Source of the DNA: Myxococcota bacterium
GTDB taxonomy: Bacteria; Myxococcota_A; SURF-8
Length of the DNA stretch: 64,000 nt
Assembly (NCBI GenBank): GCA_963674735.2
Contig: CAXXQS010000002.1
Location: forward strand, 1,664,001 to 1,728,000
Direction of reading: 5' to 3'
The notes under the pieces were generated by a model that was not told the origin of the DNA, searched no databases, and saw nothing but the letters and a program-made list of their open reading frames with translations. Below, piece by piece: positions 1,607-30,679 of this stretch; position 1 is the stretch's first letter; each line of letters opens with the position of its first letter. A program made the position numbers and the translations under genes.

Positions 1607-1635
1607 ACGGGCCGCCCCTGAATGAGACGGCCCGT
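1607..1635 (-). terminator. Intrinsic terminator of the cysteine protease gene
   Basis: ACGGGCCG...CGGCCCGT stem followed on the minus strand by a short T-run, about 30 nt after the stop at 1668. Confidence 0.55.
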
Positions 1636-1667
1636 CGGATATGCCTTAGTCTTGTGCGAAAAAACGA

Positions 1668-3614
1668 CTACCAGGAGGGGAGAATGTTCAATTCGTCCCC
1701 TGGGGCGAATACCGAGCAGGCATCGGCGAAACTGCCGGTGCACAATCCCAGCTTGCTGGGATTGAGAGAGCCGACGTTGACTCCCATGGCCTTGATGTCG
1801 GTTCCATCCAGGGAGAGGCGAATCGGTTCGGTGCGTGTGCCGTTTTCCTTTTTCATGCGGAAAAACGTTTTGGGGTTGCTCACGACCCAAGTCAGATCAT
1901 CGGGCTGGTAAACCTCGACACCGTAGTCGCCGAAGGGAATATCGAAACCGGACCAGCTGCCGTCGGGTAGCTCTTCGTCGTCCACCAGCCGATTGTCGGG
2001 GAAGGGGAATTCGATGTAGATCTTGTTTTCTTCGGTCGAGAAACGTAGCGAGCAAATGAGGTCGTATTCACCCGAACACAAGTACAACACCCCGTCGTCG
2101 ATCTGGCCCACTCGGTCGTTGTCGTAGAGCAAACGACCGGTTTTTTTGCTGTCTTTTACGAGCTCGACCGGGTTGGTGATGTTGGAGCTTTCGCGGATGA
2201 TGACGCGCACGAATACCTTGTCGCCGTCTTCGGCGTAGGCGGAGCGATAGTAGCTTTCGCCGGGGCCGAACAGTCGGATCTCATTCCAGGTCAGGTTTTC
2301 GTAGGGGTCGGGCTCGGGCAGATTGTCGATTTCATCTTCCACTTCGTCGTCGGACTTATCGGTATCGGCATTGGGGTCTTCCTCCGATTCGTCCGGAGTG
2401 TCCGGGGCGCTTTCGTCTTCGGCTTCGTCGTTATTGGGAAGTTCATCGGCTTCCTGCAGGTCTTCGCGCAGCATGACGCTCATAACCATGGGGTGGGTGA
2501 GCTGGTAACCGAAGGTCCACTGCTCCATCCATTTCAGCGTCATGCAGGAGAAACCGTTGACTCCCCAGCCGGTGCCCCAGGAATTCTTGATAACGAAGCA
2601 CATTCCGCCTTCGTCGGCCATGTTGTTCAGCTTTTTGTATCCGACGATCAGATAGGCGTGACCGGCCGCGTGACTGGTGTCGCCGGTGTGACCCGAGTCG
2701 GCGTAGGTGATCAAGCCGTCGTTGCGTTCCCAGTTGGACGACAACGGCGAAGCGAAAGGCACCGGCAGCTTGGTTTCGTGCAACGCCTTGATGATCTGGT
2801 CGGCGCCTTTGACATATTGCAACTGGGCGACTTTGACCGCGCCGGTGGAGCAGGAGCCGATTTGCGGAGTCTGCAGATCGTTGTCGCCACGTTGGGAATT
2901 ATACGGGCAATCGGCTTCCAGCGGGATGTCGAGGTCCGATGCTTCCAAGCTGCCCTCCATTCCCGTGCCGTACCAGCTTCCTTCCTCGTTGAGTGAGCAG
3001 CCCGAGCTATGGCATTCCGGCTTGCTTAGATAGTAGAAGCGTTGTTCGGACAAATCCATGGTGGGCAAGCTGCCGAAGGATTTCAGAGTGGCATATTCGA
3101 TCTGGGCGACACCGGTGAAGGCGGCGCAGGTGCCGCGGCGGCCCTGATTGCGGACTGGAATGGCGTCGAGGTGGTCGACGTAAAATTCGCTCTGCAGCTC
3201 GGACAAATTAACCTTGAAGCGCGCCTTGCGTGCGGCGTCGTCCAAGGGTTCCGAAGAATCGGCGAAGATGGAGAAATCGACACGCTCGAAATCGTCGGTG
3301 GCAATGTTTTTGCGCGGTTTGGTGGTTTTTTTGAGGATTCTCATCAAACCGTCATCCGGTTCGACCCGGCTTGAATCGGTACTTTTCGAGCGCACTTCGC
3401 CCGGACGCAATTTAGCGGACAGGTAGTCGTCCACCGCCCAATCCATGATCTGGCGGATCGATTCCACATCCGTCGGTGGAGCCATCGAAAGATCCTTGCG
3501 AATGTAATCGAAGGCCGAATCGCCGGTTAACTCCACTTCGCCCGAGTCGGAACAGCCCGCCAGGCCGATGGCCGACAGTAGGACGATGATGAGCAGATGA
3601 GCGATGCGTGACAT
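1668..3614 (-). CDS. Papain-like (C1A) cysteine protease lipoprotein with acidic linker and C-terminal domain
   Basis: Lipobox LAGC; catalytic Gln/Cys (NQGRRGTCAAF), His (AGHAYLIVGY) and Asn (IKNSWG) motifs; also DLSEQ. Confidence 0.9.
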   Translation of the reverse strand: MSRIAHLLIIVLLSAIGLAGCSDSGEVELTGDSAFDYIRKDLSMAPPTDVESIRQIMDWAVDDYLSAKLRPGEVRSKSTDSSRVEPDDGLMRILKKTTKPRKNIATDDFERVDFSIFADSSEPLDDAARKARFKVNLSELQSEFYVDHLDAIPVRNQGRRGTCAAFTGVAQIEYATLKSFGSLPTMDLSEQRFYYLSKPECHSSGCSLNEEGSWYGTGMEGSLEASDLDIPLEADCPYNSQRGDNDLQTPQIGSCSTGAVKVAQLQYVKGADQIIKALHETKLPVPFASPLSSNWERNDGLITYADSGHTGDTSHAAGHAYLIVGYKKLNNMADEGGMCFVIKNSWGTGWGVNGFSCMTLKWMEQWTFGYQLTHPMVMSVMLREDLQEADELPNNDEAEDESAPDTPDESEEDPNADTDKSDDEVEDEIDNLPEPDPYENLTWNEIRLFGPGESYYRSAYAEDGDKVFVRVIIRESSNITNPVELVKDSKKTGRLLYDNDRVGQIDDGVLYLCSGEYDLICSLRFSTEENKIYIEFPFPDNRLVDDEELPDGSWSGFDIPFGDYGVEVYQPDDLTWVVSNPKTFFRMKKENGTRTEPIRLSLDGTDIKAMGVNVGSLNPSKLGLCTGSFADACSVFAPGDELNILPSW

Positions 3615-3800
3615 GCAAACCCCCTTGTGATTTTGGGTTCATACCCCTTGTTTCGATCTATCGATCAATTGATAGAGAACATTGTAATGCGTCCAATTCC
3701 CTCTGGCAAGCCGCTTTCGCCCGAAAGCCGTGTATTCTCCGTTGAGATTTCCCCGTGACTTTGCTAAGGTGGCTTCGCAGAACACGCAGGAGGATGCGGC

Positions 3801-4538
3801 ATGATCCAGATGTTTCACGTCGCCAAAGCATATCAAGCGGATAAGCCCGTGTTATTCGATGTTACTTTGCAGGTGGAAAAAGGCGAATTCGTCTACCTGA
3901 CCGGTCCGTCCGGTGCGGGCAAGACCACACTTCTCAAGTTGATTTTCTGCGAAATCGAGCCCAATTCCGGGCAGGTGTTGGTGATGGGACGCAATGTCTC
4001 ACGTTTATCGATTCCCTCCATTCCCTTTTTACGTCGGAAAATCGGGGTTGTTTTCCAGGACTTCCGTCTGCTGCCGCGCCGCACGGTTTTCCAAAATGTG
4101 GCGGTGACGTTGGAAGTGCTCAACCGGCCGCGCCGGGATATCGATCGCCGCGTGCACGTGATGTTGAAGCGCGTGGGGCTTTCCCATCGGGCTCGGGCCT
4201 ATCCCGAACAATTATCCGGCGGCGAACAGCAGCGGGTGGCGGTGGCGCGCGCCCTGATCAACGAACCGCCGATTCTGTTGGCCGACGAACCCACCGGCAA
4301 CCTCGACGAAGATACCACCCGCGATATCATGGACTTGTTTTTCGATGCCAATGCCCGTGGAACGACGGTGTTGTTGGCGACCCATGACCGGCGTCTGTTC
4401 GACAAAACCGGTCGCCGGGTGGTGCGGCTGGAAGGGGGACGGGCGGTGTTCGATTCGGAAATCAAGCTCGAACAGGCCGAGGCCCAGGCGCAGGCGGCGC
4501 TTTCGAGTGCCGGGTTTCGGCGTGGGGGTGGCGCATGA
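3801..4538 (+). CDS. ftsE: Cell division ATP-binding protein FtsE
   Basis: [44 protein letters not shown]; overlaps ftsX. Confidence 0.95.
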
Positions 4539-5434
4539 TCCGGCTGGCTCGCTATTTCATGGCCCGTGCGCTGGAATCCATGCGGCGCTCGTTTTGGCTG
4601 GTGGCGGCCACGGTGGGGATGCTGGTCGTGATTCTGTTACTGTTCAACGTCTTCCTGATGGTCGCGATCAATGTCAATGCCCTGACCGACCGCTGGGTGG
4701 GGGCGGTACGCATGATCGTCTTCCTCGATCCGGTCGTCAATCCGGCCGAAGCACAGGATCTGGCGTTGGAATTGCGCAAACGGCCCGAAGTTCTGAATGC
4801 CTTTTATGTGACTCAACAGGATGCTACCGCACGTTTTTTAGCTGATTTTCCGTCTGATAAGGACATTTTGGAGGGTTTGCCTCAGAATCCTTTGCCGGCT
4901 TCATTGGAGTTGGAGTTGTCACCGACCGCCATGAATCTCGATGATCTTTCCCGCTTGGCAGAGGAGTTGAGCGCCCGTCCCGAAGTGGACGAGGCGGTGT
5001 TTGGACGGGAGCTTTTCGCAAAGCTGTCGGCTCTGGTGGGTCTCTTAAAACTGATCGGGGGTATTTTCGGGCTGGCGCTGGCGGTGGCGGTTTTATTTTT
5101 AAGCGCCAACACCATTCGTCTGAACCTTTACGCTCGTCGTGAAGAGATCGAAGTGATGCAAAATGTGGGGGCCACGCGCTGGTTTATCCGCTGGCCCTAC
5201 CTTATCGAAGGCCTGATCCAGGGTGCCGGGGGCGCGCTTTGCTCGCTTCTGCTCGCCTATGGTCTGTTCCGTCTGACCCTGCAACCGCTGACCGAGGCGC
5301 TGTTGGGGCCGCTGGGTCATGTGAATCTGGGCTTTTTGTCGCTTCCGGTAATGGTGACGCTCGTCCTTGCGGGTATGGCGCTGGGCGCGGGCGGAAGCAT
5401 GGTTGCGCTGGGGCGTTTCTGGAGGTCGATGTGA
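4535..5434 (+). CDS. ftsX: Cell division permease FtsX
   Basis: [13 protein letters not shown]...[23 protein letters not shown]; four TM segments; follows ftsE. Confidence 0.93.
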
Positions 5435-6510
5435 TGCAATTGCGGGGCCTCGAATGGATGGTCGGGCTGCTGGCCGTCATTCAGGTGCTGCTTCTGCCGC
5501 TGGGGGCCGCCGCCGAAACGGAATCTTCGATTCTGGAACAACTGGACAAACTGGAAGAACAGCTCGAAACCCACCGTAAAAACGCCGATAATCTGGATAA
5601 ACGCCGCAAGGCGCTGGATGCCAAATTGGAAGAATCGCTGGCTTTGGCGCTTGAGGCCGAAGCGGCGGCTAAACTGCAGTTCGACCTATTGGCGCAGCGG
5701 ATGGGTGAAGGTTATAAGCTGGCACGCGCGGCCAAGTGGGAATACCTGCTTTCCAGCCGGGATTTCTCGGATTTCGTTCTGCGACGCGAATATCTCATGC
5801 GTGTGTTGCACGAAGATCGGCGCCTGTTCGACCGGCACGCCTCATCGTTCAAGGAAATTCTTGCACGACGGCGGCGGATCGAATCGGAAAAAGTCGAACT
5901 GGATACAATCATCGCTTCGCAAAAGAACGAAAAGAAGGCCCTGACCGAGCAGGTGCTAAAGAAAAAAGCTTTCCTGGATAAGATCGTCAGCGAAGACCGG
6001 CTGCGCAAGCAGGCCGAACATGAAGTGGCTGAGGCCAAACGCAAACTGAACCGGCGCGTGGCTTCACTGGAAGGGAAGCCACGGGCGAATGCCGGACCGG
6101 CGGGCAAGTTTGCCGAGCGTAAAGGGAACATGCCTTGCCCGGTCAAAGGGCGTATCGAGATCGGCTTCGGCGAGGAAATCAGGGGATCCGCCAAGCGGTT
6201 TCACGGGGGATGGGATCTGGCCAGCCCGGCCGGGACGTCGATTCGGGCTCCGGCGGCGGGCAAAGTGGTATTTGCCGGACGTTTCAGGGGCTTTGGTAAT
6301 CTGTTGATCCTGGACCACGGCGATAAATATTATTCGCTATACGGGCATTTGCGGGAAATCAACAAGGCCGCCGGGCAACAGCTGCGAGCCGGAGAAATCA
6401 TTGGCGCCGTGGGCGACAGTGGATCGCTGAAAGGCGCGTTTTTGTATTTCGAGTTGCGGCATAGAGGCAAGCCGCTTGATCCGACCGGATGGTTTGCCTG
6501 TCGACCGTAA
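5434..6510 (+). CDS. envC: Murein hydrolase activator EnvC / M23 family
   Basis: Signal peptide, long coiled coil and C-terminal M23 domain (HGGWD, YSLYGHL, LYFELR). Start moved to the ATG overlapping the ftsX stop. Confidence 0.85.
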   Translation: MQLRGLEWMVGLLAVIQVLLLPLGAAAETESSILEQLDKLEEQLETHRKNADNLDKRRKALDAKLEESLALALEAEAAAKLQFDLLAQRMGEGYKLARAAKWEYLLSSRDFSDFVLRREYLMRVLHEDRRLFDRHASSFKEILARRRRIESEKVELDTIIASQKNEKKALTEQVLKKKAFLDKIVSEDRLRKQAEHEVAEAKRKLNRRVASLEGKPRANAGPAGKFAERKGNMPCPVKGRIEIGFGEEIRGSAKRFHGGWDLASPAGTSIRAPAAGKVVFAGRFRGFGNLLILDHGDKYYSLYGHLREINKAAGQQLRAGEIIGAVGDSGSLKGAFLYFELRHRGKPLDPTGWFACRP

Positions 6511-10853: not shown

Positions 10854-11111
10854 ATGATCGTCAGAGAAATTCGTATGGGCGGCAAGCTGAGAAAGTTCGA
10901 GTGCTTCCCCGTCGTCGAAAAGTGTGAAGGCTGCAGCAATATCGCCGAAGTCGAGGGCGCGAATTACTGTAACGTGTATGCCAAGCCGGATGCCATGTGG
11001 ACGACGGATGACTGCCTCGGCGCCACGCATGTCGATCGCAAAATCGTCAGCGTCACCGATAAAAAGGTCAATCCGCTCAAGGCGTCGAAGAAGGCCAGCC
11101 GCAACCGCTAA
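10854..11111 (+). CDS. PxxKW family small cysteine-rich protein
   Basis: C.PVVEKCEGC...YC..Y..P...W....C..ATH and KVNPLKASK pattern; RBS GAGGAG. Confidence 0.75.
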   Translation: MIVREIRMGGKLRKFECFPVVEKCEGCSNIAEVEGANYCNVYAKPDAMWTTDDCLGATHVDRKIVSVTDKKVNPLKASKKASRNR

Positions 11112-11220
11112 CGACTCGTTTTCGCAAGTCGTTTTGCGCCTACCGGACATTCATGTCTTCCCTGCCGCAAAGCCGTATTCGCAAGAGTTACGGTTAGGTG
11201 GTGGGGTTTGTCTTTTTTCG

Positions 11221-11850
11221 TCAGCGTACACCGATCAGTTTGTGCAGTTGCAGTGAAAGCCGCCAGCGGGGGTGACGCAGGCAATAGTCCAGCGCCTGTC
11301 GGATGTGGACGGAACCGTCGGGAATATCGACCGGCTGCAGGAAGAAGTAGCGGAAATCAAGGTTCTCGAAATCTGCCGGGTCAAGCCCGATTGGATAGAG
11401 CAACTTCAGCTCGTCTCCTTGGATAATCGTCAATGATTGTCCGGGCTTGGGGCTGACCGTCACCCAGTCGAGTTCTTCCGGAAGAGCGCGCGTACCGTTG
11501 GTTTCGACCGCCAGCGTGAAACCGGCGGTTTTACAGGCGGTTAGAAGCGGCGCGTCCAGTTGCAACGACGGTTCCCCGCCGGTGAAGACCAGGTAGGGGG
11601 CTTCCTCCGATTTCGGCCAGCATGAAATGAGATGATCGGCCAGGGATGCTGCGGTGTCGAATACCCCCCCGCCTTTGCCGTCGGTCCCGACAAAATCCGT
11701 GTCGCAGAACGGGCAGGCGCTGCCGGGCTTGTCGGCTGCTTTGCCGCTCCACAGGTTACAACCCGAAAAACGGCAGAAGACCGCCGGTCGTCCGGCTTGC
11801 AGGCCTTCACCTTGAATCGAATAGAATGCTTCTTTGACGCGATAGGCCAT
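11221..11850 (-). CDS. queE: 7-carboxy-7-deazaguanine synthase (radical SAM, Cx14Cx2C variant)
   Basis: YSIQGEG..AGRPAVFCRFSGCNLWSG...CPFCDTDF, TGGEP, ETNG, SPK, LSLQLHK; adjacent to queC. Confidence 0.93.
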   Translation of the reverse strand: MAYRVKEAFYSIQGEGLQAGRPAVFCRFSGCNLWSGKAADKPGSACPFCDTDFVGTDGKGGGVFDTAASLADHLISCWPKSEEAPYLVFTGGEPSLQLDAPLLTACKTAGFTLAVETNGTRALPEELDWVTVSPKPGQSLTIIQGDELKLLYPIGLDPADFENLDFRYFFLQPVDIPDGSVHIRQALDYCLRHPRWRLSLQLHKLIGVR

Positions 11851-12558
11851 TCAGCCCTCCGCGTAACGTGTAGGATCGGGGACTTGCGCCTCAGCGAAAC
11901 CTCGTTTTCGCAAAATACAGCTATCGCAGTGGCCGCAGGCCAAGCCTTCCGGGCTTGGGTCGTAGCAGCTATGGGTGAGACCGTAATCGATACCGAGCTT
12001 GACGCCTTCGCGGATGATCTGGGCTTTCGTGAGGTTCAACAGCGGGCTATGGACGGTGAATGTCCCACTGCCTTCCACCCCGGCGCGCGTGGCCAGATTC
12101 GCGGTTCGCTCGAAGGCGCGGATAAATTCCGGGCGGCAATCGGGATAGCCGGAGTAGTCGATAGCGTTGACGCCGATGAAAATATCGAAGGCTCCCAGCA
12201 CTTCGGCCCAACCGAGTGCGAACGACAGGAAAATCGTGTTGCGTGCCGGGACGTAGGTAATTGGAATGTCAGCCGAATGATCCACGTCCTGGTCTTTCGG
12301 GACGGCCAGATCGGCGGTCAGGGCCGAGCCGCCGAAGCGGCGCAAATCGAAGCGGATGGTGGCGACGTCTTCCGCACCGTAAACATCAGCGATACGCCGG
12401 GCGGCCTGCAATTCCACTGCGTGACGCTGGCCATAGTCGAAGGTCAAGGCATAGCAGGTGAAGCCTTGTTGGCGTGCGATGGCCAGGCAAGTGGCGGAAT
12501 CGAGTCCTCCGGACAGTAAAACGACGGCTTTTTTCGACGATGTTTGGCTCATGCTCAT
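11851..12558 (-). CDS. queC: 7-cyano-7-deazaguanine synthase
   Basis: [32 protein letters not shown] and SCY...CG.CDSC. Confidence 0.95.
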
Positions 12559-12714
12559 CTCCCAATCCTGTTCCCTTTCTTCTACCCCTCCCTGCCGGGA
12601 AGATCAAGTGAATCGAGTGTTTGAAAGAATGCTTAACAATCTCCTCTCTTTACATCGCTCTTTGCCTGGGTGATAATGCGGTCAATCCGACAGCCGAGCA
12701 AAGGAGAAACCGAC

Positions 12715-14862
12715 ATGTCCGCGTTTTTCAGCCGTTTTGCCGCATTCAGTGTTCTCGTTGTTTTTCTCTTGGCTCCGTCCGTTGTTTTCGCTTGGGGGGC
12801 GGGGATGCATACCGCTTTGACCGGGCATGCTTACGATCGTATGACCGCCCGCTGGAAGTCGGCGATGGACCCGGCGCTCATGTACTACGGTTCCTGGGGA
12901 CCGGACGCCTGGTATATTCTCTCGGATGATTTCATGAGTCTTCTGTGCCCGGTGTCCTGCGGCGGAGCCAACGGTGCGCTGTCGAATGAGGGTTGGGGCC
13001 ATTATACCGATCCCGACCGCTACTACAACATGACGCGCCATCTGATGGTCCATGCCGACAGCCTCCCGGCTTTGTCCTGGGCTTTTGGATACGGTGCGCA
13101 TACGGTGGAAGATTGGCGCGGGCATATCGAATACATTATTTTATCAAATCCTTCCGGCAGCTTATACAATCGGCATACTTTCATCGACAGCACCGGGGCG
13201 GCCCTGGCTTTCAACGTGGAGGGACTTTACGGCTATCCCACCGACTTCACCCTCAATCGGCTGGCCTTCGGTTACGCTGAAGGAGGTTTTGTCACCGATA
13301 GCAATGCCGAACAGACCGGTGGGCGCATTCCGGGCTTGGGGCTGAGTGTCGCCGTCGAGGAAGTGGCCGGTCAGCTCAAGGCACGCTGGAAGGGCATTTT
13401 GGATCCCGAGGTGTCGGGCCTGGAACCGGCGGCCGTCAGCGCCATGTCGGATCTCACGGCTTATTCCAGTGCTTCGGAAGGCATTCTGGCCGCCCAATAC
13501 GGCGTGAGCGACTGGGATTCCGCCGGGCGGGATTTTCCCATTTACATCGAAGACGGCGAACCGGCTATCGTGTGCGCGAACGATTACAAGCAGCGCCTCG
13601 CCTGCGAGGAAGGCTTCGGCTATCCCATGGCCTGCCAAATCAGTTATGGCGGCATCAGCGGGCTGGTTCAATGGCACGATTACCTCAAACCTGCCGACGA
13701 AACATCCCAGGAAGTGGTGGTGGATCGCGATCAGGTGGCGCGCTGGATGGAGAAAATCGCCGAGAATCAGGAATCGGGCGGGGTGCGCATGGATGATGCC
13801 GCGGTTTTCGATGTCGATCCCGATACGGGCCTCTCACGGCGGCATTTCACGGGTATCGATGGCCGCGATTTCAGCTTTGGCCGCACGGTGCCGGAAATCG
13901 TATATGAAGTTCTGGATTTATCGGTTCAGGACGTGGTGGAGCGCCTGTTCGAGAATCCGCATATCGTTGGGACCATCTGGCAGTCGCGCTTGAATCCCTT
14001 CGACAAGGCGCGCTTTGTGGCTTTCGGGTTTCACGCGCGTCCGCGTCTGTCGGCCTGGCCGGATACTTTGTCTTACGAAGACGAAACCATCGCCCTCAAG
14101 CCCGCCGCACCGGGGCCTTTCGCGCTGGCCGAGTTGTCCATCGATCTGCGGCCGGAGGTCGACAATGCGGCACCGGAGATGGTCTTCCCGCATTATCTGG
14201 TTGAAATCAGGCCGGAATTGGATGGCTTTTTCGGAACGGGTCGTGTCGATTTCGAAGCCGGTTATGTTGATGAAGCCGGGTTGCTTGACGTCCTCCAGCA
14301 GGCGTCCTTCGATCTCGCCACGGCGAGTGTCGGCGGTGATGAGGATTTCGCCGTGCAGGCGACGGACGCGGAGGAACGTTCGGTGTTGCGCTTATGGCTC
14401 GACAATCGCGAGGGGGGCTGGCATTTTTACCCGGAAGGTCATTCCGAACGCGCCCTGATGCTTCGCATCTCACTGGCCGTCACTGACGCCGTGCAACCGC
14501 CTTTTGACCTGATTCTCGATACAACCGTTCAGGGTTATTGCGAAAAGCCGGATCTGGCCGATCCCGGCGATGCCTCCACCTCGAATGCCGCCTGCCCGCT
14601 CGTCAAACCGGATTTCCCCGAAGAGCCGGAGATGGAGGGCGATGGCGATGAAGAATCGAGCGAGTTGAATGAGGATGGCGATACCGAAGCGGAATCCGGT
14701 GATGAGGATCAGTCCGCTTCCGATGGCGATGCGTCGGAGTCACCTTTGGTGTCGGACGACGCGGGCGGGGGTGGTTGTCAAGCGGCCACTCCGTCCGCGC
14801 TGGGAATGCTCCTGCTCGTCTTGAGCGGGGCTTGGTTGCGTCGTCGTCGCCTAGTCTTCTGA
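12715..14862 (+). CDS. Secreted Zn-dependent phospholipase C / P1-nuclease-like protein with C-terminal MYXO-CTERM-like sorting signal
   Basis: Signal peptide ending VFA|WG..MH; metal-ligand pattern [25 protein letters not shown]; acidic linker; tail GGGGC...TM...RRRR. RBS AAGGAG before ATG 12715. Confidence 0.65.
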
Positions 14863-21544: not shown

Positions 21545-21574
21545 TTGACACAAGGTGGGGAGGCTGGGTAGGAT
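21545..21574 (+). promoter_or_regulatory. Putative sigma70 promoter of the PqqD / giant-protein unit
   Basis: TTGACA-18 nt-TAGGAT upstream of ATG 21618. Confidence 0.4.
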
Positions 21575-21617: not shown

Positions 21618-21893
21618 ATGACTTATCCGTTCAGAAATCCGCGTGCGGCGACACGAACCATTGAAGGCGAGGCGGTTGCCGTTTCGCCGGACGATGCGAT
21701 GCTGCACAATTTCAACGAAGTGGGAACCCTGATTTGGGAACTGGCGGATGGTCGACACGACCTCGACGCCATTGCCGATCGCGTTTCGGCTACCTATGAC
21801 GTCGGCTTGGCCGAAGCCCGGCGCGATGTGGAAGCGTTTTGCAGCCAGTTGGCCGATCGCAAGATTCTCGTTTGGCGAGATAAGCCTCGATAA
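21618..21893 (+). CDS. PqqD family protein (RiPP recognition element)
   Basis: 91 aa: R.IEGEAV.V......H.FNEVGTLIWELADG......IADRVS..YDV....ARRDVEAF...L....IL, the classic PqqD/RRE pattern. Confidence 0.9.
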   Translation: MTYPFRNPRAATRTIEGEAVAVSPDDAMLHNFNEVGTLIWELADGRHDLDAIADRVSATYDVGLAEARRDVEAFCSQLADRKILVWRDKPR

Positions 21894-21972: not shown

Positions 21973-24900
21973 ATGGTCATGAAACGGATTCCGGAGATCC
22001 TGATGGTGTTGATCGCCACTACGCTATTGGCGGGGTTGGCGGTTGGATGCTCCAGCTCCAGTTCCATCGGCGGCGATTACGACCTGAGCAGCGAAACCGA
22101 CCTCGATGGCGATATGGAAGACACGGAAGAGCCGGAAGGCGACACCGACGGAGATGCGGACGAAGACGGTGATGTCGAAGAGGAGACGGCCATCCCGACG
22201 GTTTCCTTCGATGACGGAGATTCTTGGTCGGTGACGTATGCCGATGATGCCAATGGCAGTCTCGACGGTGTACAGATTTCGGTCGGAATCAGCACCGAAA
22301 ACATCGATGCCGGGGTTGCGGTCAGCTTGACCGTCGGGGATTCGACCGAGCCCTTGTCCGGCACGCTTGGAGACGATGGCAAAGCGACATTTGCCGATGT
22401 AACGCTGGAGCCGGGCACGAACAACCTGGGGGTTACGGTGGACTTGGAAGGCGATGACGACCTGACCGCCGCTGCCGCCGTTACCTTGACCGGTTGCCGG
22501 ATCATCTTTGTCGATCCCATCGAGGCCCAGAGCCTGACGGATGCGGGGGGAACCTGCTCAGCCGACGATTGCGGCGATGATCTCGATTGCAACATGCCGA
22601 ACCTGCAATACAACGTGTCGTTGACCGTCGAAAACGTCGGTGTCGGCCGCGCGGCGGCTCTGACCGTCGGGGATGTCGATCCGTTGACGGCCAATGTGGC
22701 GGCCGACGGTTTGACCTTCAGCATGGTGAGCCTGCCGCACAACGCCTCGCTTCCGCTTAGCGTCGAAGTAACCAATGCTGCGGGCTTCACCTGCGAGGCG
22801 GAGATCAATGTGGCGGTGGATATCCAGTGCGATTGCCATCTTGTCATTGATCCGATTCCCGAAGATTACAATCTGGCGGTTACCGACGATGACGACCAGA
22901 CCGACGGTTTCCAGAAGCGCTTCACCGCGACTTCCGATAACTGTCTGGACGGCTCGCAGGTCAGCTTCACTGTGGATGCCGGAACGCGCGCCGATCCGGT
23001 CGTGGTAACATTGGAAAACCAGCAAGCTGTTGCCTTACTGACCTTGCCCGATGGCTCGCATACGCTTGAAATGGGGATCACCGAGCCCGATACCGCGCGT
23101 ACCGGCGCGGCCGGTCCTTACAGCTTCCGCGTCGATCGGGAGGCTCCGCTGTTCGATTCGGTCAACCCGACCGATGGTATGACGCTTTCCAAGCTCAACG
23201 ACAGCGACCTGGATCTCAGCAACGGCATTCAAATTGCCGTTTCGGGTGTTACGACGGGCGTTGAAGCCTTGGATCCGGCCTTGACCGTCGCTTTGACCAT
23301 CGACGATGTGGATTGGCCGGAAACGGCGGATGTGGCCAACAACCAGTTCAATTTCGCTTCGGTTACCCTGTCGCGTCCCGATGGCGCGGCCGATCCGGTC
23401 GCTATGGTTCTTGAGTTGACCGTCCAAGACGAATTGGGGAATCCCACAACGGAGACGATCAACCTCAACGTGTATTTCGATGAACCGGAGTTGACCCTCA
23501 CTGAAGTCGGCACCAAACCGGTTGCCGATCCGCTGATTCTCAACATCGGTGACGATGAGGACGGCGTTGCAAACCTGCTGCAGGTTACCGTTACCGCCAG
23601 CAGCAACCTGATTCCCGAGAACTCCAATGCTCGGCTGTTTGTCGATTCGGGTGCGCCGGTTGATGGGACGATCGGGTCCGATGGCTCCGTCACCTGGGAA
23701 ATAGCCTTGGATAACGGTGCGCATACCCTGAGTGCCGATGCGGAACTATCGGGTGTCGCCGGAGCCGTTGAGGCCGAAGATGTGGATCTCTGGGCAGACT
23801 GGGAAGCTCCGATGATTCAGTTTGTCTCACCACAGAATAACGATTACGTCGATACCAATGTGATGGATGTTACCGTTTATTCGGATGCGGAGAACGCGTC
23901 CGATGGCGATAAAGGTCAGAAAGTGACCTTGCTGGTCAACGGCAGTGCGCTGGCGTCCGGTCCGGTGGCCCTTGATGCCGATGGATTGGCGCTTTTCGAA
24001 GACGTGGATGTTTCGATGTCGCGACTTTCGACTTTCCAACTGGAGGCGGAGATTTCGGATTACGCCGGAAACGATGCCGATACGCAACTTAGCTTGAATG
24101 TCGACAATCAGGCTCCGACCGTTGCCGTGACGGCTACCCCGGATGTTGGCAATCCCGCTCAAGTCGAAATCCTGATCACGGTTAGCGATGATGCGCCGAC
24201 GGAAGGACGCGATGTGACGCTGACGTTGTTTAACGTCAACAGTGCGCCTGTCCAGCAGGATCAACGAACCCTCAGCCTGGCTTCCGGAGAAGCGACCTAT
24301 ACCTACAATAGTCTTCCCGACAGCAGCTACAGCGTAACGGCTCGCTATGAAGATCAGGCCGGGAACGACGATAGCAGCAGTGACGATTTCGAGGTTGATA
24401 CCGGTTGTTATACCATGTCGATCACGGCGCCGACCAATGGCGTTTTCTATGGGATTGCCGATGCCGTCGGTGGGAACCCGGCCAATGGTGTTGACATTTC
24501 CGTTGTTGTCGAGGCCGGTGGCGTTCGACCCATCCCGGATGCCAGCGCGGTTTTCCTGCAAGTCGACGGCGCTTTGCCGGGCATAAGCGGAACGATGGCT
24601 TCAGGTGTGGCGACGTTTGCGAACGTCAACCTCGATGCCGGATCGCATACTTTGGAAGTGTACACTCTCAAACAGCCGGGACCGGTGTTCTGCTATGCGT
24701 CGCCGCGACCGGTTAATGTGACCGTCGATTTCACGGCCCCGACGCTCAGCCTGACGAGCCCCGCGCCTCCAGTCCCCGCGACGGACCCGCTGGTGTACAA
24801 TCTGGCCAGCACCGATGTTTCTCCCGATGCGGGTTTCCAGGCCGCTTTCACGTATCGCAGTCTGGATGCCGGTGAAGGTCAGGATGTCACGTTGGTGGTG

Positions 24901-27900
24901 AGCGACGGTTCGCGTGCGCAACAGTCGTACACGGCGGCGCTCAATGCTTCGGGCGATGCCCTTTTCAATTCCGTCACCCTTTCCGGCAGCACTTTTGCAC
25001 AAGGAACGCTGCTGACTCTGACGGCGACCGTGGAAGACGAATCCGGCAACACATCGGATCCGGTGGCTTATTTTGCCATCGTCGACCGCCTGGCGCCGAC
25101 TTTCAGCAATATCATGCCGACAGCGGGATCCACCTTGAATTCCGGTGATGACAACGATCCGGTTGCGGAAAACTTCCAGCTGCTGATGACTCTCACCATC
25201 GCCGATGGAACGCCGGGTTCCGGTAATGTGAGCGTCGAGGTGGTTCCGTCCGCCGATCCGGGCAACCCTTATGATCTTGGGCCCTTCAATCTGCAGGCGA
25301 ATGGCTCGGTGACGATTACCGGGTCTTTCACCGAAGGCAGCTACACCTTGAACATCGCCCATACCGATGAAGCCGGAAACAGCGGCGATACCAGCGTATT
25401 CTATCAGATCGACTTCGTGGCCGAACTGACGCTGCTTGACAAGAATTTCGATCCCATTCCTCCCGATGGCGGTGGAGATACGGTTCTCGACAGCTCGTTC
25501 GATACCAGCGGCGATGCCGGTTTCCAGACCAACTTCTATGCGAATACGCGTGGTTTCCAACAAGGTCTGCCGGTTTATCTGTGCTCGACCCTCGCGTCGG
25601 AAGGGACCAATGGAGTCTGTACCTCCGCTCCTGGCGGGGTTACGGCTTATCGCGTAGCCAGCGCGCTGGTTACCGCCGGCTCCGGCGATGCCGGGTCGGC
25701 CACGTTCAGCGATATCGATCTTGACGATCAGGCCACCCGCCTACTGTTTGTCGAAGGTACCGATGGGGCCAACAACTACAGCTCGTCCGAACCGGCAACG
25801 GTTATCGTCGATGCGACCGCTCCGACCGTGGATGCCTTTGTTATTACGGACAATCTGGTCGGCAACGATTTTCCGCCCAACATCGTTCTGAACCGCAATG
25901 AAGGTGACATCGTAACGGGTCTGTTGGTTGTCGATATGAGAGTGGATAGTGCCGACAGCGACGCTGAAACGGTACGTGTTTATGTCGGGGCCGTGGATGG
26001 TACCATCGAAGCCAGCGCGAGTCTCTCTGCCGGTTCGGCGGTTTTACGTTTGCCGGATGTCTCCGGTTTGCCGAACGGATATACGGATGAGCTGAATGCG
26101 GTGGTCGTCGATGAAAACGGCAATGAGTCCGATCCGTTCACATTGCCGGTTATCGTGGATCTGCGGAGTCCCTCGATTGCCTTTGTCGGAAGCGGTCTCT
26201 TGAGCGTCAATGCCGATGATTGCTCGGGCTTCAGCGGCGACGCTTGCGAGACGTCGGTTTCCGTTACGGTCACACGCGCCGCCAATGATCTTTTCGATCT
26301 GGACGGCGGAGTTGTCACGATTACCGATTCGGCCAGCCGGGCGGTGGTCGGTACGGCGGTTATTCCCAGCATCGCCGCCGGAGCTTCGGCCGAAATTCCG
26401 GTTGATGTGACGCTGGACGAAGGATCCTACACGCTCTATGCCAGCGCTGCCGATCCTTATGGCAATTTGTCCGAGACCGTCAACCGGAGTGTCAGCGTCG
26501 ATGTGTTTGCTCCGACGGTGGCGTTTGTAACGCCGTCGAGCGCATCGATTACGTATGATGGCGGCACGGATGATCAGGCTACCTGCGGCGGCAGCACCAC
26601 CGATCAGTACTTCACCCGCTGCGACTGGCAGGTTTCAGCCAGTGGCGTGACGAGTAATACGACCTTACAGCTTTATTACAAGGTTTCCACGGACCCGGGC
26701 GACTTCAACCCCTTCGACCTGCCCAGTCAGGGTTCGACCAGCGTGAGTGCGGACGGCAACTGGTCGATCAGTCGCGCGGATTTCCAACTGGACGGCAGTG
26801 AAACTTTCCTGGTTAAAGTGCAGGCCACCGAAGTTGCGACCGGTAACGTCGGGTGGTCGGACGAGGTGTCGGTTACCATCAATGGTTTCAGTCCGACCTG
26901 GACGATCGCGTTCAAACGTCTGGATGATTCAACGTTTGCCAGCGGCGCAATCTTTGATGAGAACGATGAAAAGGATGGCGATTTGACCAATGCCTCCGTA
27001 ACCATCGATTTCAAGGTTTCCACCAACATTCCGGATGGCGAAACGATGAGCCTGTCCGTTAACGGCAACGGCCCCGCCAGCCAAAGCATCGCCAGCGGAA
27101 TCGCGACGTTTAGCGATGTGGTTCTCAATGAAGGTGCGCAGAACACCTTGAGCGTCGAGGTGGTTGGTTATACCAGTTCATCGGTAACGGTTATCGCCGA
27201 TACCAAAAATCCGGAGCTGGTTTTCACCTCTCCCGTATTTAAAGCGACGTACAACGTGGCGGACGATACGGATACCGGTGATCGTACCGGCGTGTTGCTG
27301 GGATCCAGCGTCGTGGTCAAAACCACGGATATCATGCCCCAGTCGGGACAACCGGGTTACACGGTTCGTCTGGTGGCCGACGATGGAACGAAGGCTGTGA
27401 CCACCTTGGCCACGGCGAATTGGACGACCGATACCGGTGTCTACAAATACAAAGCGACCTTCACCAATGTCAGCCTGCCGAACGGGGCTATTTCGCTGGA
27501 TGTCAAAGCCGACGATACCGGGGCGGCTCCGGTGGATCGCGCCGAACACCAGGGGGCCGTGCAGACGCCTCTGCCGTCGATGACGGTCGATGCCGATCCT
27601 CCGGCGGATGCTACCAGCCTGGAAGTCTGTCTGGGCTCGGATACGGGCACGACGGGCAGTTTCGATCAGGATGGTGTCAACTGTACGTCGGCTTATGCCT
27701 GTAACAGTCTGAGCAGCCGCTGTGACCGCCATGCCGGCACGGCCGCCCTTGTGTGGACGGCACCCTCCGGTGATGGAACGACCGGTAGCGTGACGCCGAG
27801 CAGTTATGAAATCCATTACGTCAAGAAAACCGGCACGGTCGACCCGTGTTCGGGTGTTACCTGGGCGACGGCCAACAGCCCATCCGCCGGTGTAACCGTT

Positions 27901-29475
27901 ACCGTGGATGCGCTCGTTGCGCCAAGTAGCAAACAAGGGGCGGTGGTTACGGGGCTGTCGGTCAATACCGATACCAGCTATTGCTTCCTGGTCAAGGCCA
28001 AGGATGCGGCCGGGAACAGCTCGATCAATGCGGTTTCTGTGGCCCGTGAAGTGGCGTTCATCAAAGAAACGCTGGTGTCGGGTGTGGGCGGAAGCGAATT
28101 GGTCTATCCGGGGTATTACGTCGAATTCGGCGATTTCAACGGAGATGGTTGCGCTGATGTCGCCGTCGCCGATCCTTATTGGGGCACGCAGAGCACCTGC
28201 GCTGAAGTTGACAAGAGCGACTGCACACAGGAGGGTGGAAAAGTCAGCGTGATTTATGGCGATGACGGCGATGCCTGTACGCCTGAAAGCGATTGGGAAA
28301 CCAACGGTTTCTACCAGTCTGCGAACTCGTTTGGCGACAACCTTGGCTGGAGCCTGGGGGTGGGCGATCTGAACGGCGATTGCATCGATGACTTGGCTGT
28401 GAGCGCCTCCCGTTACAATTCCGATGATGGCGGCGTGTTTGTTTACCTCGGTAGTTCCTCGGGTCTCAAAACCACCGCCGGTGATGTGGCGGGTGGTGAG
28501 CCGAGCATCGAACCCGATGTCACGATCGGGTCGGATGCGGGGGGATATCAGGGTCTTGGCAACCATATCGAGGTCATGAACTGGAACGGCGATACGGTGA
28601 ATTGCGGCGGAACCGATAGGCCGGTGCACGACCTGTTTGTTTCGACTTACTTCTATTCGGACTATGCCACCATCTTCTTCCCGGTTTATGCGTTCCTGGG
28701 CGGCTCCGGCTTTACCAGCGGTGCGAACTTCAATGTCACCAGTGGCGACGAAGATTTCAGTGTTCAGGGATTGTACGACGATCCGACCACTACTTATTCG
28801 TGGTACTTCGGCTTCTTCCTGTCTCATGGCGATTTAGATGGTGACGGCTATGAAGATCTACTGATCAGCGATACCGATTACCAGTGGTCGGGCGGTACTC
28901 GCGATCATTTCTGGGTGGTTTGGGGCAACTCCACCGTATCGAGTTCGATCCAAGCGCCTGCCGCGGGCTTCCTCGAACTTCCGCCTGATACCGCCGATCA
29001 GGTCGAGGATTATGGATTCTATGTCGGAGGTGTGCTCGATACCGACAATGACGGTCTTGACGAGGCTCTGGTGCGCAAACTCGCCACCAATTCCGTGCAC
29101 TATTGGAAAAGCACGACAGGCAGCGAGCGTGATGTTGCCGATACAACGCGCTTCTTCCAGTATGAGACATCGCCGGGTAGCACGGATACCTACTATGGCA
29201 TCGAACCGGCCACGGCGGGCGATTTCAACCATAGCGGCTTCAACGATGTCATTTTGTCCGGCACCGGTATCGTGCGTGTCTTCTGGGGCCGCACCGGTGG
29301 CATCAAGAATGACAGCGAAGCGCCGGGCGCACCGGAAGACGACTTCATCAACATCAACGGTCTGTCGACGGTCAACACCTTGCAGGCTAAGGGTAACGGC
29401 GATTTCGACAATGATGGTTCCGCCGATATCGTCGTGGTGGATCAGTCGACCGGTGACGTTTACCTGATTCACTAA
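21973..29475 (+). CDS. Giant (about 2500 aa) surface lipoprotein: tandem Ig-like repeats, FN3-like domain, C-terminal FG-GAP/integrin-like beta-propeller
   Basis: Lipobox LAVGC; D/T/S/G/V-rich repeats ending D.AGN and VD..AP; WTAP.GDG...Y.F.VKAKDAAGN; GDFNGDG, GDLNGD, GDLDGDG and GDFDNDG motifs. The true start may be ATG 21979, given RBS spacing. Confidence 0.85.
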   Translation: MVMKRIPEILMVLIATTLLAGLAVGCSSSSSIGGDYDLSSETDLDGDMEDTEEPEGDTDGDADEDGDVEEETAIPTVSFDDGDSWSVTYADDANGSLDGVQISVGISTENIDAGVAVSLTVGDSTEPLSGTLGDDGKATFADVTLEPGTNNLGVTVDLEGDDDLTAAAAVTLTGCRIIFVDPIEAQSLTDAGGTCSADDCGDDLDCNMPNLQYNVSLTVENVGVGRAAALTVGDVDPLTANVAADGLTFSMVSLPHNASLPLSVEVTNAAGFTCEAEINVAVDIQCDCHLVIDPIPEDYNLAVTDDDDQTDGFQKRFTATSDNCLDGSQVSFTVDAGTRADPVVVTLENQQAVALLTLPDGSHTLEMGITEPDTARTGAAGPYSFRVDREAPLFDSVNPTDGMTLSKLNDSDLDLSNGIQIAVSGVTTGVEALDPALTVALTIDDVDWPETADVANNQFNFASVTLSRPDGAADPVAMVLELTVQDELGNPTTETINLNVYFDEPELTLTEVGTKPVADPLILNIGDDEDGVANLLQVTVTASSNLIPENSNARLFVDSGAPVDGTIGSDGSVTWEIALDNGAHTLSADAELSGVAGAVEAEDVDLWADWEAPMIQFVSPQNNDYVDTNVMDVTVYSDAENASDGDKGQKVTLLVNGSALASGPVALDADGLALFEDVDVSMSRLSTFQLEAEISDYAGNDADTQLSLNVDNQAPTVAVTATPDVGNPAQVEILITVSDDAPTEGRDVTLTLFNVNSAPVQQDQRTLSLASGEATYTYNSLPDSSYSVTARYEDQAGNDDSSSDDFEVDTGCYTMSITAPTNGVFYGIADAVGGNPANGVDISVVVEAGGVRPIPDASAVFLQVDGALPGISGTMASGVATFANVNLDAGSHTLEVYTLKQPGPVFCYASPRPVNVTVDFTAPTLSLTSPAPPVPATDPLVYNLASTDVSPDAGFQAAFTYRSLDAGEGQDVTLVVSDGSRAQQSYTAALNASGDALFNSVTLSGSTFAQGTLLTLTATVEDESGNTSDPVAYFAIVDRLAPTFSNIMPTAGSTLNSGDDNDPVAENFQLLMTLTIADGTPGSGNVSVEVVPSADPGNPYDLGPFNLQANGSVTITGSFTEGSYTLNIAHTDEAGNSGDTSVFYQIDFVAELTLLDKNFDPIPPDGGGDTVLDSSFDTSGDAGFQTNFYANTRGFQQGLPVYLCSTLASEGTNGVCTSAPGGVTAYRVASALVTAGSGDAGSATFSDIDLDDQATRLLFVEGTDGANNYSSSEPATVIVDATAPTVDAFVITDNLVGNDFPPNIVLNRNEGDIVTGLLVVDMRVDSADSDAETVRVYVGAVDGTIEASASLSAGSAVLRLPDVSGLPNGYTDELNAVVVDENGNESDPFTLPVIVDLRSPSIAFVGSGLLSVNADDCSGFSGDACETSVSVTVTRAANDLFDLDGGVVTITDSASRAVVGTAVIPSIAAGASAEIPVDVTLDEGSYTLYASAADPYGNLSETVNRSVSVDVFAPTVAFVTPSSASITYDGGTDDQATCGGSTTDQYFTRCDWQVSASGVTSNTTLQLYYKVSTDPGDFNPFDLPSQGSTSVSADGNWSISRADFQLDGSETFLVKVQATEVATGNVGWSDEVSVTINGFSPTWTIAFKRLDDSTFASGAIFDENDEKDGDLTNASVTIDFKVSTNIPDGETMSLSVNGNGPASQSIASGIATFSDVVLNEGAQNTLSVEVVGYTSSSVTVIADTKNPELVFTSPVFKATYNVADDTDTGDRTGVLLGSSVVVKTTDIMPQSGQPGYTVRLVADDGTKAVTTLATANWTTDTGVYKYKATFTNVSLPNGAISLDVKADDTGAAPVDRAEHQGAVQTPLPSMTVDADPPADATSLEVCLGSDTGTTGSFDQDGVNCTSAYACNSLSSRCDRHAGTAALVWTAPSGDGTTGSVTPSSYEIHYVKKTGTVDPCSGVTWATANSPSAGVTVTVDALVAPSSKQGAVVTGLSVNTDTSYCFLVKAKDAAGNSSINAVSVAREVAFIKETLVSGVGGSELVYPGYYVEFGDFNGDGCADVAVADPYWGTQSTCAEVDKSDCTQEGGKVSVIYGDDGDACTPESDWETNGFYQSANSFGDNLGWSLGVGDLNGDCIDDLAVSASRYNSDDGGVFVYLGSSSGLKTTAGDVAGGEPSIEPDVTIGSDAGGYQGLGNHIEVMNWNGDTVNCGGTDRPVHDLFVSTYFYSDYATIFFPVYAFLGGSGFTSGANFNVTSGDEDFSVQGLYDDPTTTYSWYFGFFLSHGDLDGDGYEDLLISDTDYQWSGGTRDHFWVVWGNSTVSSSIQAPAAGFLELPPDTADQVEDYGFYVGGVLDTDNDGLDEALVRKLATNSVHYWKSTTGSERDVADTTRFFQYETSPGSTDTYYGIEPATAGDFNHSGFNDVILSGTGIVRVFWGRTGGIKNDSEAPGAPEDDFININGLSTVNTLQAKGNGDFDNDGSADIVVVDQSTGDVYLIH

Positions 29476-29494
29476 TCCGGGTTGATTATGACGG

Positions 29495-29528
29495 CCCGGG
29501 GCTGGCTCTGGCCTGGCCCCGGGTCTTT
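29495..29528 (+). terminator. Probable terminator after the giant gene
   Basis: CCCGGGGC...GCCCCGGG stem followed by TCTTT. Confidence 0.55.
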
Positions 29529-29564
29529 AGTTAATTCGGTTAGTTGGAAATCTCTTTGAATCGC

Positions 29565-29593
29565 TTGACAGTCTGGTGACACCTATTGATAAT
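29565..29593 (+). promoter_or_regulatory. Sigma70-type promoter of the small peptide gene
   Basis: TTGACA-17 nt-GATAAT, about 50 nt upstream of ATG 29644. Confidence 0.65.
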
Positions 29594-29643
29594 TGCGAGA
29601 TCGGAAGACCCAAAACTTCGCATTCTTTGAACGAGAGGACAGC

Positions 29644-29802
29644 ATGAGCGACAGAACGAAGACTACGGAACAAGAAGTCCGGAGCAGCAAGAAGCCATAT
29701 AAAAAACCCGAAGTCGAAAGCGCCAAGATTTACGAGCGTTTATCGCTGGCCTGCGGTAAAGCTACGCAGCCTCCCTGCCGCACTCCGCTTAAGTCGGCTT
29801 AA
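29644..29802 (+). CDS. Putative RiPP precursor peptide (52 aa)
   Basis: RBS GAGAGGA; MSDRTKTTEQEVRSSKKPYKKPEVESAKIYERLSLACGKATQPPCRTPLKSA carries a KKPYxKPxV RRE-binding-type motif and a two-Cys C-terminal region. Confidence 0.75.
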   Translation: MSDRTKTTEQEVRSSKKPYKKPEVESAKIYERLSLACGKATQPPCRTPLKSA

Positions 29803-29824: not shown

Positions 29825-30679
29825 TTGCCTCACACATCGGAAGGCTTTTGTATTGCGGGCGTTTTCTTTTCGCTGGATGCTGCGCCTGAGGTATATAAAG
29901 CTTGCGTCATTCCTCGATATCTTTCGGCATTCATCTCCGATGGCATGAGTCGTCACGACTTGGTGCATGCGCGGATCGAAGCGCTTGACAAGCCGGAAGA
30001 ATTCGTGAGCGATTCAACCGTACCGGATGTTCGGATTCTGCCTCATCATCAAGGCTATCGTATTGAAGTTCCAGGGGGTATTTTCGCTAATGTCGATGAG
30101 GAAAACCGATCGATCGTGATGATGATTCCGCGCGCATTGCTTGAAGGCGATTGTTTCACGGCCTGGATCCCATTTTCTTCCCTGCTCCGTATCTTCTTTT
30201 CGATCGAATTACCCAAGCGGAACAGCGGACTTCTCATGCATGCTTCCTCGATTGAAACAACCCAAGGGGCACAACTGTTTCTCGGGCCTTCGGGGGCGGG
30301 AAAATCCACGGTTTGCGATCTGGGGGGTGAACGAAATATTTTGAATGACGAAGTATCGATTTTACGCCGGATTTCAGGCTCTTGGGTCGTGGAACCTTCT
30401 CCGTTCTTTTCCCGCGAAACACGGGAAAATCGCGCGATTCGGCCCGGTCCTGTGGCCGGGATTCATCTGCTAACTCAATCGGAATTCGATTCTCTTGAAT
30501 CTCTATCCATTCCGCAGGCGCTAGCTCCCTTCATGCGCTGCATCATGAATTTTTTGGATGGCCCCGAGGTGGCGGAAAGACTTCTGGAGCTTTCCACGGA
30601 CTGTCTGATGGCCCATCCGGCCACCCGCCTGTATTTCACTCCAACCCCGGCATTTTGGTCGCACATCGAAGCGGATTGA
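29825..30679 (+). CDS. HPr kinase-related P-loop protein (ScmC / lasso-kinase-like)
   Basis: LLMHASSI, LFLGPSGAGKST, ILNDEVSILR, SPF and LYFTPTPAFW; the TTG start is uncertain. Confidence 0.75.
   Translation: MPHTSEGFCIAGVFFSLDAAPEVYKACVIPRYLSAFISDGMSRHDLVHARIEALDKPEEFVSDSTVPDVRILPHHQGYRIEVPGGIFANVDEENRSIVMMIPRALLEGDCFTAWIPFSSLLRIFFSIELPKRNSGLLMHASSIETTQGAQLFLGPSGAGKSTVCDLGGERNILNDEVSILRRISGSWVVEPSPFFSRETRENRAIRPGPVAGIHLLTQSEFDSLESLSIPQALAPFMRCIMNFLDGPEVAERLLELSTDCLMAHPATRLYFTPTPAFWSHIEAD

Follow-up and report, generated by a model that had tools for sequence, protein, structure and literature searches.

Introduction

The closest known system to the one analyzed here is that of the linear polyphosphorylated peptides (LPPs), described by Popov et al. 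in 2026 (PMC13381572). According to the available sections of that paper, LPP clusters combine an RRE, an HprK kinase and a leader peptidase of the signal-peptidase-I (SpI) type, and their precursors begin with the leader YxxPxVLxHQxIxFETxxS, in which YxxPx[V/L] is the described RRE-binding motif. Residues N33 and D70 of LppB grip the leader, polyphosphate is placed on Ser3, and the peptidase LppS cuts after F-E-T. Removal of a leader by an SpI was presented in these sections as new for RiPPs, the final product and its function were left open, and the peptides were reported from Bacillota only. Neither radical SAM nor SPASM proteins, and neither Acidobacteria nor Myxococcota, are mentioned in the main text as available; in the dataset, peptidases from Acidobacteriota and Myxococcota are listed with the precursor "not determined" in the rows at hand, and the model TIGR04249 is counted 67 times in the cluster-1 neighborhood table. 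A second group of related enzymes, the HprK-type lasso kinases, phosphorylates the C-terminal Ser of the linear precursor (PMC8498205 and PMC9266682, in the parts available).

Here we describe a peptide gene with comparable partners in a 64,000-nucleotide stretch of Myxococcota DNA, referred to as the window. A literature search, most subscription journals being outside its coverage, returned no published description of the peptide family, and the available parts of PMC7470986 and bioRxiv 10.1101/467670 contain nothing on it.

Results

The terminator, the TTGACA-17-GATAAT promoter, the GAGAGGA ribosome-binding site and the 52-codon reading frame that had been noted in a first-pass annotation of the window were all found where it had placed them (Table 1), and the translation likewise agreed with its account of Cys37, Cys45 and Ser51 and of a region after Cys37 that is free of Asp and Glu. 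A longer reading of 69 aa from a TTG at 29593 was rejected, since this start falls inside the -10 box and the homologues described below begin at the ATG. The peptide matched no Pfam or NCBIfam model, a regular-expression search found no second precursor copy in the window, and an Rfam search gave two matches, both subthreshold and implausible. Taking the evidence together, we consider the reading frame almost certain to be a genuine RiPP precursor gene.

Table 1. Features of the peptide locus, with positions numbered from the first nucleotide of the window
Feature	Position	Strand	Basis or remark
Discrete RRE (PqqD family), candidate leader-binding adapter	21618..21893	+	PF05402, E = 3.5e-16
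Predicted lipoprotein of 2500 aa with Ig-like and FG-GAP repeats	21973..29475	+	Lies between RRE and peptide
Intrinsic terminator that ends the giant-lipoprotein gene and shields the promoter of the peptide	29493..29535	+	13-pair stem and T tail
Predicted sigma-70-type promoter, TTGACA-17-GATAAT (11/12)	29565..29593	+	Sequence match
Shine-Dalgarno-like GAGAGGA, with ATG 4 nt further on	29633..29639	+	Sequence
RiPP precursor gene, 52 aa	29644..29802	+	ATG at 29644, stop codon ends at 29802
Conserved leader motif Y19-x-K-P-x-V-x-S-x-x-I-Y-E-R-L-S-L-A36; candidate RRE-binding YxxPxV plus peptidase-recognition part	29698..29751	+	Family alignment
Variable core region C37-G-K-A-T-Q-P-P-C45-R-T-P-L-K-S51-A	29752..29799	+	Family alignment
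HprK/PEPCK-fold P-loop kinase, ScmC-like, candidate peptide kinase	29825..30679	+	Profiles, structural model, residues

The terminator hairpin (29493 to 29525), which is followed by a T-rich tail, had a folding energy of -29.5 kcal/mol (z = -4.38), and just 1 of 200 shuffled sequences folded as well; the hairpin at the equivalent place before the peptide gene of a related Myxococcales locus (L001) reached z = -6.94. Promoter matches at the 9/12 level are not unusual by themselves, with 2 observed against 3.8 expected from 6 kb of shuffled sequence; the TTGACA-17-GATAAT site is the sole one scoring at least 11/12 on either strand of the 64-kb window. L001 repeats the succession of terminator, promoter (TTGACA-18-GATACT, 10/12), ribosome-binding site, peptide and kinase, and the peptide gene of another Myxococcota locus (L006) is preceded by TTGACA-17-TATACT (11/12). 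At operon-internal peptide genes (L003 to L005) the best promoter score was just 6 to 8/12, and a 10/12 match at L002 lies within the upstream gene and is possibly due to chance. As judged from these matches, the promoter is conserved where it would be expected, at leading peptide genes and not at operon-internal ones. Its letters, taken by themselves, suggest high expression of the peptide gene.

While a single-sequence word-index search returned no homologue of the peptide, an exhaustive phmmer search of 1.84 billion representatives gave 9 matches at E ≤ 0.001, 8 of them homologues of 46 to 57 aa (best E, 1.7e-11); the ninth, a 642-aa repeat protein (P0025), was dropped as spurious. A profile search yielded 19 proteins out of 468 candidates, and 6 loci were confirmed among 47 pattern matches in a scan of species genomes. 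The resulting family set comprised 26 sequences (25 distinct), of which 23 were counted as full length once P0038, which has no Cys, and P0039, which stops at the Cys motif after 31 aa, had been excluded as probably truncated or frameshifted. The family near PqqD genes that the first-pass annotation had predicted does exist. Its profile matched nothing in the PDB at E ≤ 10, a set that may not include the short LppA leader chain, and tblastn searches of plasmids with the peptide, the kinase and the related-locus S26 peptidase found nothing. In the ESM Atlas, 30 of 30 look-alike clusters lacked a common Pfam family (best score, 0.94; 829, 97 and 63 members in the top three), which is a lead on family size and not an alignment. 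Going by these clusters, the class could be an extensive one in both Acidobacteriota and Myxococcota.

The leader of all 23 full-length members conforms to YxKPxVxSxxI(Y/F)E, in which Y, K, P, S and E are invariant and V (22/23) is replaced once by I. An RRE-binding leader motif, as had been proposed for the window peptide, is well in keeping with this pattern and with the linked RRE present in the window and in 4 of 6 related loci. The first Cys stands exactly 18 residues after the leader Tyr (Tyr+18) in every member and is always preceded by a small-Leu-small tripeptide (A or S at -3; A, G, S or T at -1), and a further Cys invariably follows 6 to 14 residues beyond it. Both Cys residues are kept whether or not a radical SAM gene adjoins. 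A Ser is found 6 to 8 residues past the last Cys in 23/23 members, as the last residue in 17, the penultimate in 5 and neither in 1; after the cores had been thinned to <60% identity, it was last or penultimate in 10 of 11, against a background of 24 of 184 long reading frames, but the family members are kin and these counts are thus not independent trials. In the window peptide, Ser51 is the sole Ser downstream of Cys37.

The proposed small gene with a leader and a core was thereby substantiated, since the leader is fixed and the core varies except for its Cys residues and terminal Ser, and the Cys pair (23/23) and the terminal Ser (22/23 in the last two positions) proved to be family traits. 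Between the window and L001, the 23 leader codons show 11 synonymous and 3 non-synonymous differences. "LACGK" did not hold as a conserved element, with Gly following the first Cys in just 11 of 23 members. Asp and Glu are absent after the first Cys in 21/23, including the window peptide. A third Cys occurs in four members (those of L002 and L005, P0024 and P0036), which form a subgroup with CxKC straight after the leader; their three thiols could favor metal binding or a different cross-link.

The kinase gene begins 22 nt downstream of the peptide gene, and the gap contains no stable hairpin and no attenuator (z = 0.71), so that the two are probably cotranscribed. The protein carries Pfam PF27840 (ScmC), and its best NCBIfam match is TIGR04249 (ScmC; E = 3e-7), under the cut-off of that model. 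Its structural model (pLDDT 90.2) aligned with HPr kinases at Z 9.9 to 11.0 and rmsd 2.5 to 3.0, far above unrelated folds (3tqf: Z 11.0, rmsd 2.8 over 120 residues), and with PEPCK at Z 15.2. H139, K160 and D175 are invariant in 23/23 aligned homologues, a set containing no lasso kinase, and we infer that they represent the His-Lys-Asp-Asp motif of the lasso kinases; the residue after D175 is Glu in 14 of the homologues and Asp in 9, with Glu in the window kinase. A kinase tree gave no well-supported group including the window kinase (87/87, drawn open) and serves as the basis for no claim. We consider the peptide very likely to be the substrate of the adjacent kinase.

With a profile built from five RRE sequences, the best PDB match was the LppB structure 9x8z (E = 3.6e-11); since a lasso RRE scored 1.8e-9, the lead of LppB is slight. 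The Asn and Asp equivalent to N33 and D70 of LppB are kept in 5/5. A second good promoter match, TTGACA-18-TAGGAT (10/12), lies upstream of the RRE gene at 21545-21574 (+) and shows no clear conservation in L001. The giant lipoprotein between RRE and peptide, which carries numerous Ig-like repeats and, toward its C terminus, an FG-GAP region, is probably a surface adhesin. It is 37% identical over 1902 aa to its 2613-aa counterpart from the corresponding position in L001 (1993-9834), and its membership in the peptide system is uncertain.

The six related loci come from four named lineages and one unclassified genome, with 51 and then 81 selected ORFs scanned; the sample is small, with several loci on short contigs (L002, L003 and L005 are limited thereby). 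L001 has the gene order of the window, with RRE, giant protein, peptide and kinase. A radical SAM/SPASM gene directly precedes the peptide in L002, and in L003 (Methylomirabilota) and L004 (Acidiferrales) the order is kinase, RRE, radical SAM/SPASM, peptide and S26 peptidase. L005 (Elusimicrobia) consists of RRE, peptide and S26 before the contig ends, and L006 of peptide, kinase and methyltransferase. Overall, the kinase and the RRE were each present in 4/6 loci, radical SAM/SPASM and S26 each in 3/6 and a lasso cyclase in 0/6. Two further peptide-kinase pairs, P0035 with P0003 (15141) and P0022 with P0005 (4140), are suggested solely by contigs of the same size. The PRMT-like methyltransferase right behind the L006 kinase (11088-12230, +) could provide that member with an additional tailoring step; in L005, two large membrane proteins with spermidine-synthase domains (1112-5964, +) lie upstream of RRE and peptide.

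The S26 proteins of the related loci match SEC11/SPase I and possess the Ser and His motifs. Their presence coincides with the aromatic-Glu motif of the leader, which reads (Y/F)-E-T in the three S26-adjacent loci (L003 to L005), Y-E-R in the window and L001 and Y-E-V in L006. Among the 107 window ORFs of at least 130 aa, we found no S26 peptidase (tblastn was likewise negative), lasso cyclase, B2 peptidase, nucleotidyltransferase or MsbA-like exporter, and the scanned ORFs of the six loci contained no NTP transferase, MsbA-like exporter, macrolactam cyclase or B2 peptidase; the sole Asn_synthase match among scanned ORFs was QueC. The window, L001, L005 and L006 have no radical SAM gene beside the peptide. 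The nearest solved relatives of the family enzyme, PqqE and SkfB, are both distant and do not settle its chemistry, and its SPASM domain has eight Cys. The adjacent HprK/ScmC-type kinase, the RRE, and the S26 and radical SAM partners of the related loci all go beyond the first-pass annotation.

A radical SAM/SPASM protein that is encoded in the window (61069-62217, -) was rejected as cognate because of its ~27% identity to the family enzyme, its different SPASM Cys spacing and its distance of 31 kb. It has mycofactocin-, NirJ- and GeoRSP-like matches, all under cut-off, scores far under cut-off with PapB/StsB-type models and is flanked by an acyl-CoA dehydrogenase and an uncharacterized membrane protein. 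Weak plasmid matches for radical SAM, kinase and RRE belonged to other clusters, and none of three radical SAM loci that were opened contained the peptide system. One plasmid (L008, Macrococcoides bohemicum NZ_CP079985.1, 4676-8752) carries a separate RiPP-like cluster with PqqD, a radical SAM enzyme, a 40-aa peptide (FxKP leader, one Cys) outside the peptide family, a second radical SAM enzyme along with an ABC transporter. Another (L007, Thiodictyon NZ_CP020371.1, 5647-11724) encodes a PqqD-fused radical SAM enzyme, a second radical SAM enzyme, an amidohydrolase, YcaO and TfuA.

Elsewhere in the window, we observed a 730-aa protein with a weakly zinc phospholipase C-like N terminus and a MYXO-CTERM-like C terminus (12670-14862, +), features suggestive of a Myxococcota-like host, a PilZ gene at 32257, and a sigma-54 activator with, after it, an extended flagellar operon comprising flgC, fliF-I, hook genes, motAB, fliL-P, flhB and others (38092-59008, +).

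Discussion

Our analysis points to an apparently undescribed sister family of the LPPs, whose members are probably phosphorylated and trimmed by neighboring enzymes. In the reading that we favor, at a probability of roughly 0.6, the window peptide would be a RiPP precursor guided by the RRE, with Ser51 as the most likely phosphorylation site and a ring closed between Cys37 and Cys45. The RRE would bind the leader YxKPxV and the kinase would phosphorylate the linear precursor, with the phosphate going to Ser51. The Cys pair would most simply close a ring, although a disulfide is not expected to be stable in the cytoplasm; in operons containing a SPASM enzyme, a radical modification would be expected, the chemistry of which cannot be read from sequence. 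The S26 peptidase, where present, would remove the leader, and the expected product is a short, cationic peptide with a Cys ring and a tail bearing phosphoserine. We can only guess at its role, which by analogy to the proposal for LPPs might be that of a cell-surface or biofilm-related signal.

Taken by itself, Ser51 is the probable phosphorylation site, because the terminal Ser is the sole conserved hydroxyl of the core, with no other Ser after Cys37 in the window peptide, and because HprK-type lasso kinases recognize a C-terminal Ser (PMC8498205 and PMC9266682, as available). Several observations count against it. Ser51 is penultimate, as in 5/23 members, and one member has no Ser among its last two residues. 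The closest characterized kinases, LppK and BsfK, act in the available descriptions on Ser3 of the core, where the present family has Cys. Against the favored reading as a whole stand the Glu in place of Asp as the fourth catalytic residue of the window kinase, the failure to recognize S26, a nucleotidyltransferase or an MsbA-like exporter among the 107 scanned window ORFs, the lack of the family radical SAM enzyme in the window, the slight lead of LppB over a lasso RRE, the small number of loci, and the 7.7 kb between RRE and peptide gene.

The leader/core cut directly before Cys37 that the first-pass annotation had assumed is now one of three candidate sites. LppS cuts after F-E-T in the available text of PMC13381572, and a small-x-small cut before Cys37 was accordingly demoted from an obligatory step. 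An LPP-like cut after (Y/F)-E-T would suit the three S26-adjacent loci and not the Y-E-R of the window; a cut after Tyr+15 would make Cys the third residue, like Ser3 of LPPs; and a cut immediately before Cys would use the small-Leu-small tripeptide.

It is also possible, at somewhat below even odds, that a radical SAM cross-link defines the product, as a Cys37/Cys45 thioether or another oxidation, with the window holding half of a split cluster whose family radical SAM and S26 genes would be located in another part of the genome. This would be compatible with phosphorylation of Ser51 by the adjacent kinase. The placement of radical SAM/SPASM directly before the peptide in L002 to L004, the invariance of both Cys residues regardless of an adjoining radical SAM gene and the fact that the window is part of a 2.37-Mb contig all fit such an arrangement, but the window, L001 and L006 have no such gene beside the peptide, and PqqE and SkfB are too distant to decide the matter. 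The pairing of a cognate radical SAM/SPASM enzyme with a Cys-containing precursor that marks sactipeptides and ranthipeptides is thus seen in L002 to L004 and not in the window, L001, L005 or L006. The eight Cys of the family SPASM domain argue against it as well; in thioether-forming radical SAM enzymes, one site is often free to accept the thiol of the substrate.

We consider it unlikely that the cluster has been reduced in the lineage of the window, so that the leader is retained and an abundant, phosphorylated small protein of full length acts inside the cell as a phosphate sink, a metal or redox ligand, or a regulator. Such a scenario would explain why S26 adjoins just the three loci with (Y/F)-E-T, LppS requiring F-E-T at its cut in the available text of PMC13381572, and why the window, L001 and L006, with Y-E-R or Y-E-V, have none; a promoter that is strong by sequence and the failure to see a dedicated exporter agree with it. 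The peptidase may nevertheless be encoded elsewhere, and three loci against three is a small sample. Signal-peptidase sites have small residues at -3 and -1, and the tripeptide before Cys has this form in 23/23 members, which counts against a retained leader.

Improbable in our view is that the kinase keeps the LPP register and hits Cys37, yielding S-phosphocysteine or a thiol activated for ring closure, with the terminal Ser used in another step. Counted from the leader Tyr, Ser3 of LPPs is at +18 (Y-16 to S3), precisely where all 23 members have Cys, and the kinase belongs to the ScmC type, which is frequent in LPP clusters as far as the available tables show. This would leave the conservation of the terminal Ser (22/23) without explanation, and LppK did not accept Thr or Tyr there, with no Cys variant reported in the text available; moreover, the register may not carry over, because the spacing from Tyr to (Y/F)E differs by two residues from that of LPPs. 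We give a similarly low weight to the extension of this idea to an undescribed, widespread class: its LPP-type kinase would have exchanged Ser for Cys as the target at Tyr+18, and a cyclic phosphopeptide would be completed by a SPASM radical SAM enzyme together with a soluble signal peptidase.

That the RRE and the kinase mature the 2500-aa surface protein, the peptide being merely a decoy or regulator, is very unlikely: the giant gene does separate RRE and peptide in L001 as well as in the window, but the protein has no leader-like motif and was not seen in the other 5 of 6 loci, a terminator separates its gene from the peptide, and the synteny with L001 extends to housekeeping genes upstream and may therefore be plain inheritance. 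A class I lasso precursor beginning with Cys can be practically dismissed in spite of the paeninodin-like YxxPxV leader, discrete RRE, HprK kinase and terminal Ser, because the Asp/Glu acceptor is missing (absent in 21/23) and neither a cyclase nor a B2 peptidase turned up when ORFs of the window and six loci were scanned; the first-pass conclusion on this point stands, although its argument from the absence of Thr at -2 is a poor one because lasso precursors with Ile or Val at -2 exist (PMC10368454, in the part available).

The peptide family supplies a precursor for clusters with LPP-type peptidases outside Bacillota, with a different core characterized by the Cys pair and the terminal Ser. 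Its systems of three or four small genes make testable how an HprK-type kinase chooses among Ser3, a C-terminal Ser and Cys, and likewise where S26 cuts and what the family SPASM enzyme does, and the leader motif can be used to annotate a gene family overlooked by Pfam and NCBIfam.

Among known systems, the SynChlorMet, GeoRSP and HPr-rel-A models (TIGR04248-04251, TIGR04302-04303 and TIGR04352-04353) name the same kinds of genes, PqqD-like, HprK-related and radical SAM/SPASM, and give the best subthreshold matches for kinase, RRE and radical SAM enzyme. All scores are well under the curated cut-offs, however (window ScmC, 30.1/125 bits; ScmD, 31.6/100 bits), the peptide matches no model, and no ScmE or ScmF lies beside it. 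No paper on SynChlorMet was found in the literature search, with its coverage excluding most subscription journals.

With the paeninodin type (PadeK, ThcoK and SyanK; PMC8498205 and PMC9266682, as available) the system shares an HprK-homologous kinase, a discrete RRE, a C-terminal Ser and a ring-plus-tail layout. It differs in having no macrolactam acceptor, cyclase or B2 peptidase and YxxP instead of WxxP, and those kinases use the last residue, whereas Ser51 is penultimate. The Bsf lasso peptide of Bradymonadales (PMC10368454, in the part available) similarly involves a deltaproteobacterial, RRE-assisted kinase acting on a YxxP-leader precursor, but is a true lasso that is phosphorylated on Ser3 and cut by B2.

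As far as the available parts of PMC13381572 allow comparison, LPPs share the discrete RRE with its leader-gripping Asn and Asp, the HprK-like kinase, the archaeal-type signal peptidase I (here S26 in 3/6 loci, none being found in the window) and the lack of a macrolactam cyclase, along with the leader start YxxPxV, an aromatic-Glu(-Thr) motif and a conserved modifiable residue at Tyr+18; some LPP cores in the supplementary table also have two Cys, which narrows the gap. In contrast to LPPs, the present family has Cys rather than Ser at Tyr+18 (23/23), an aromatic-Glu motif two residues nearer the Tyr, no HQ, a second Cys and a terminal Ser throughout, and a radical SAM/SPASM gene adjoining the peptide in 3/6 loci, while the NTP transferase and MsbA-like pump of LPP clusters were not seen in the window or the six loci. 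Its hosts are Myxococcota, Acidobacteriota, Methylomirabilota and Elusimicrobia, whereas the paper limits LPPs to Bacillota. We did not file the family as LPP because the leader consensus, the Ser3 site and the NTP-transferase and exporter features fail; its kinase, RRE, S26 and radical SAM partners place the system beside the LPP family.
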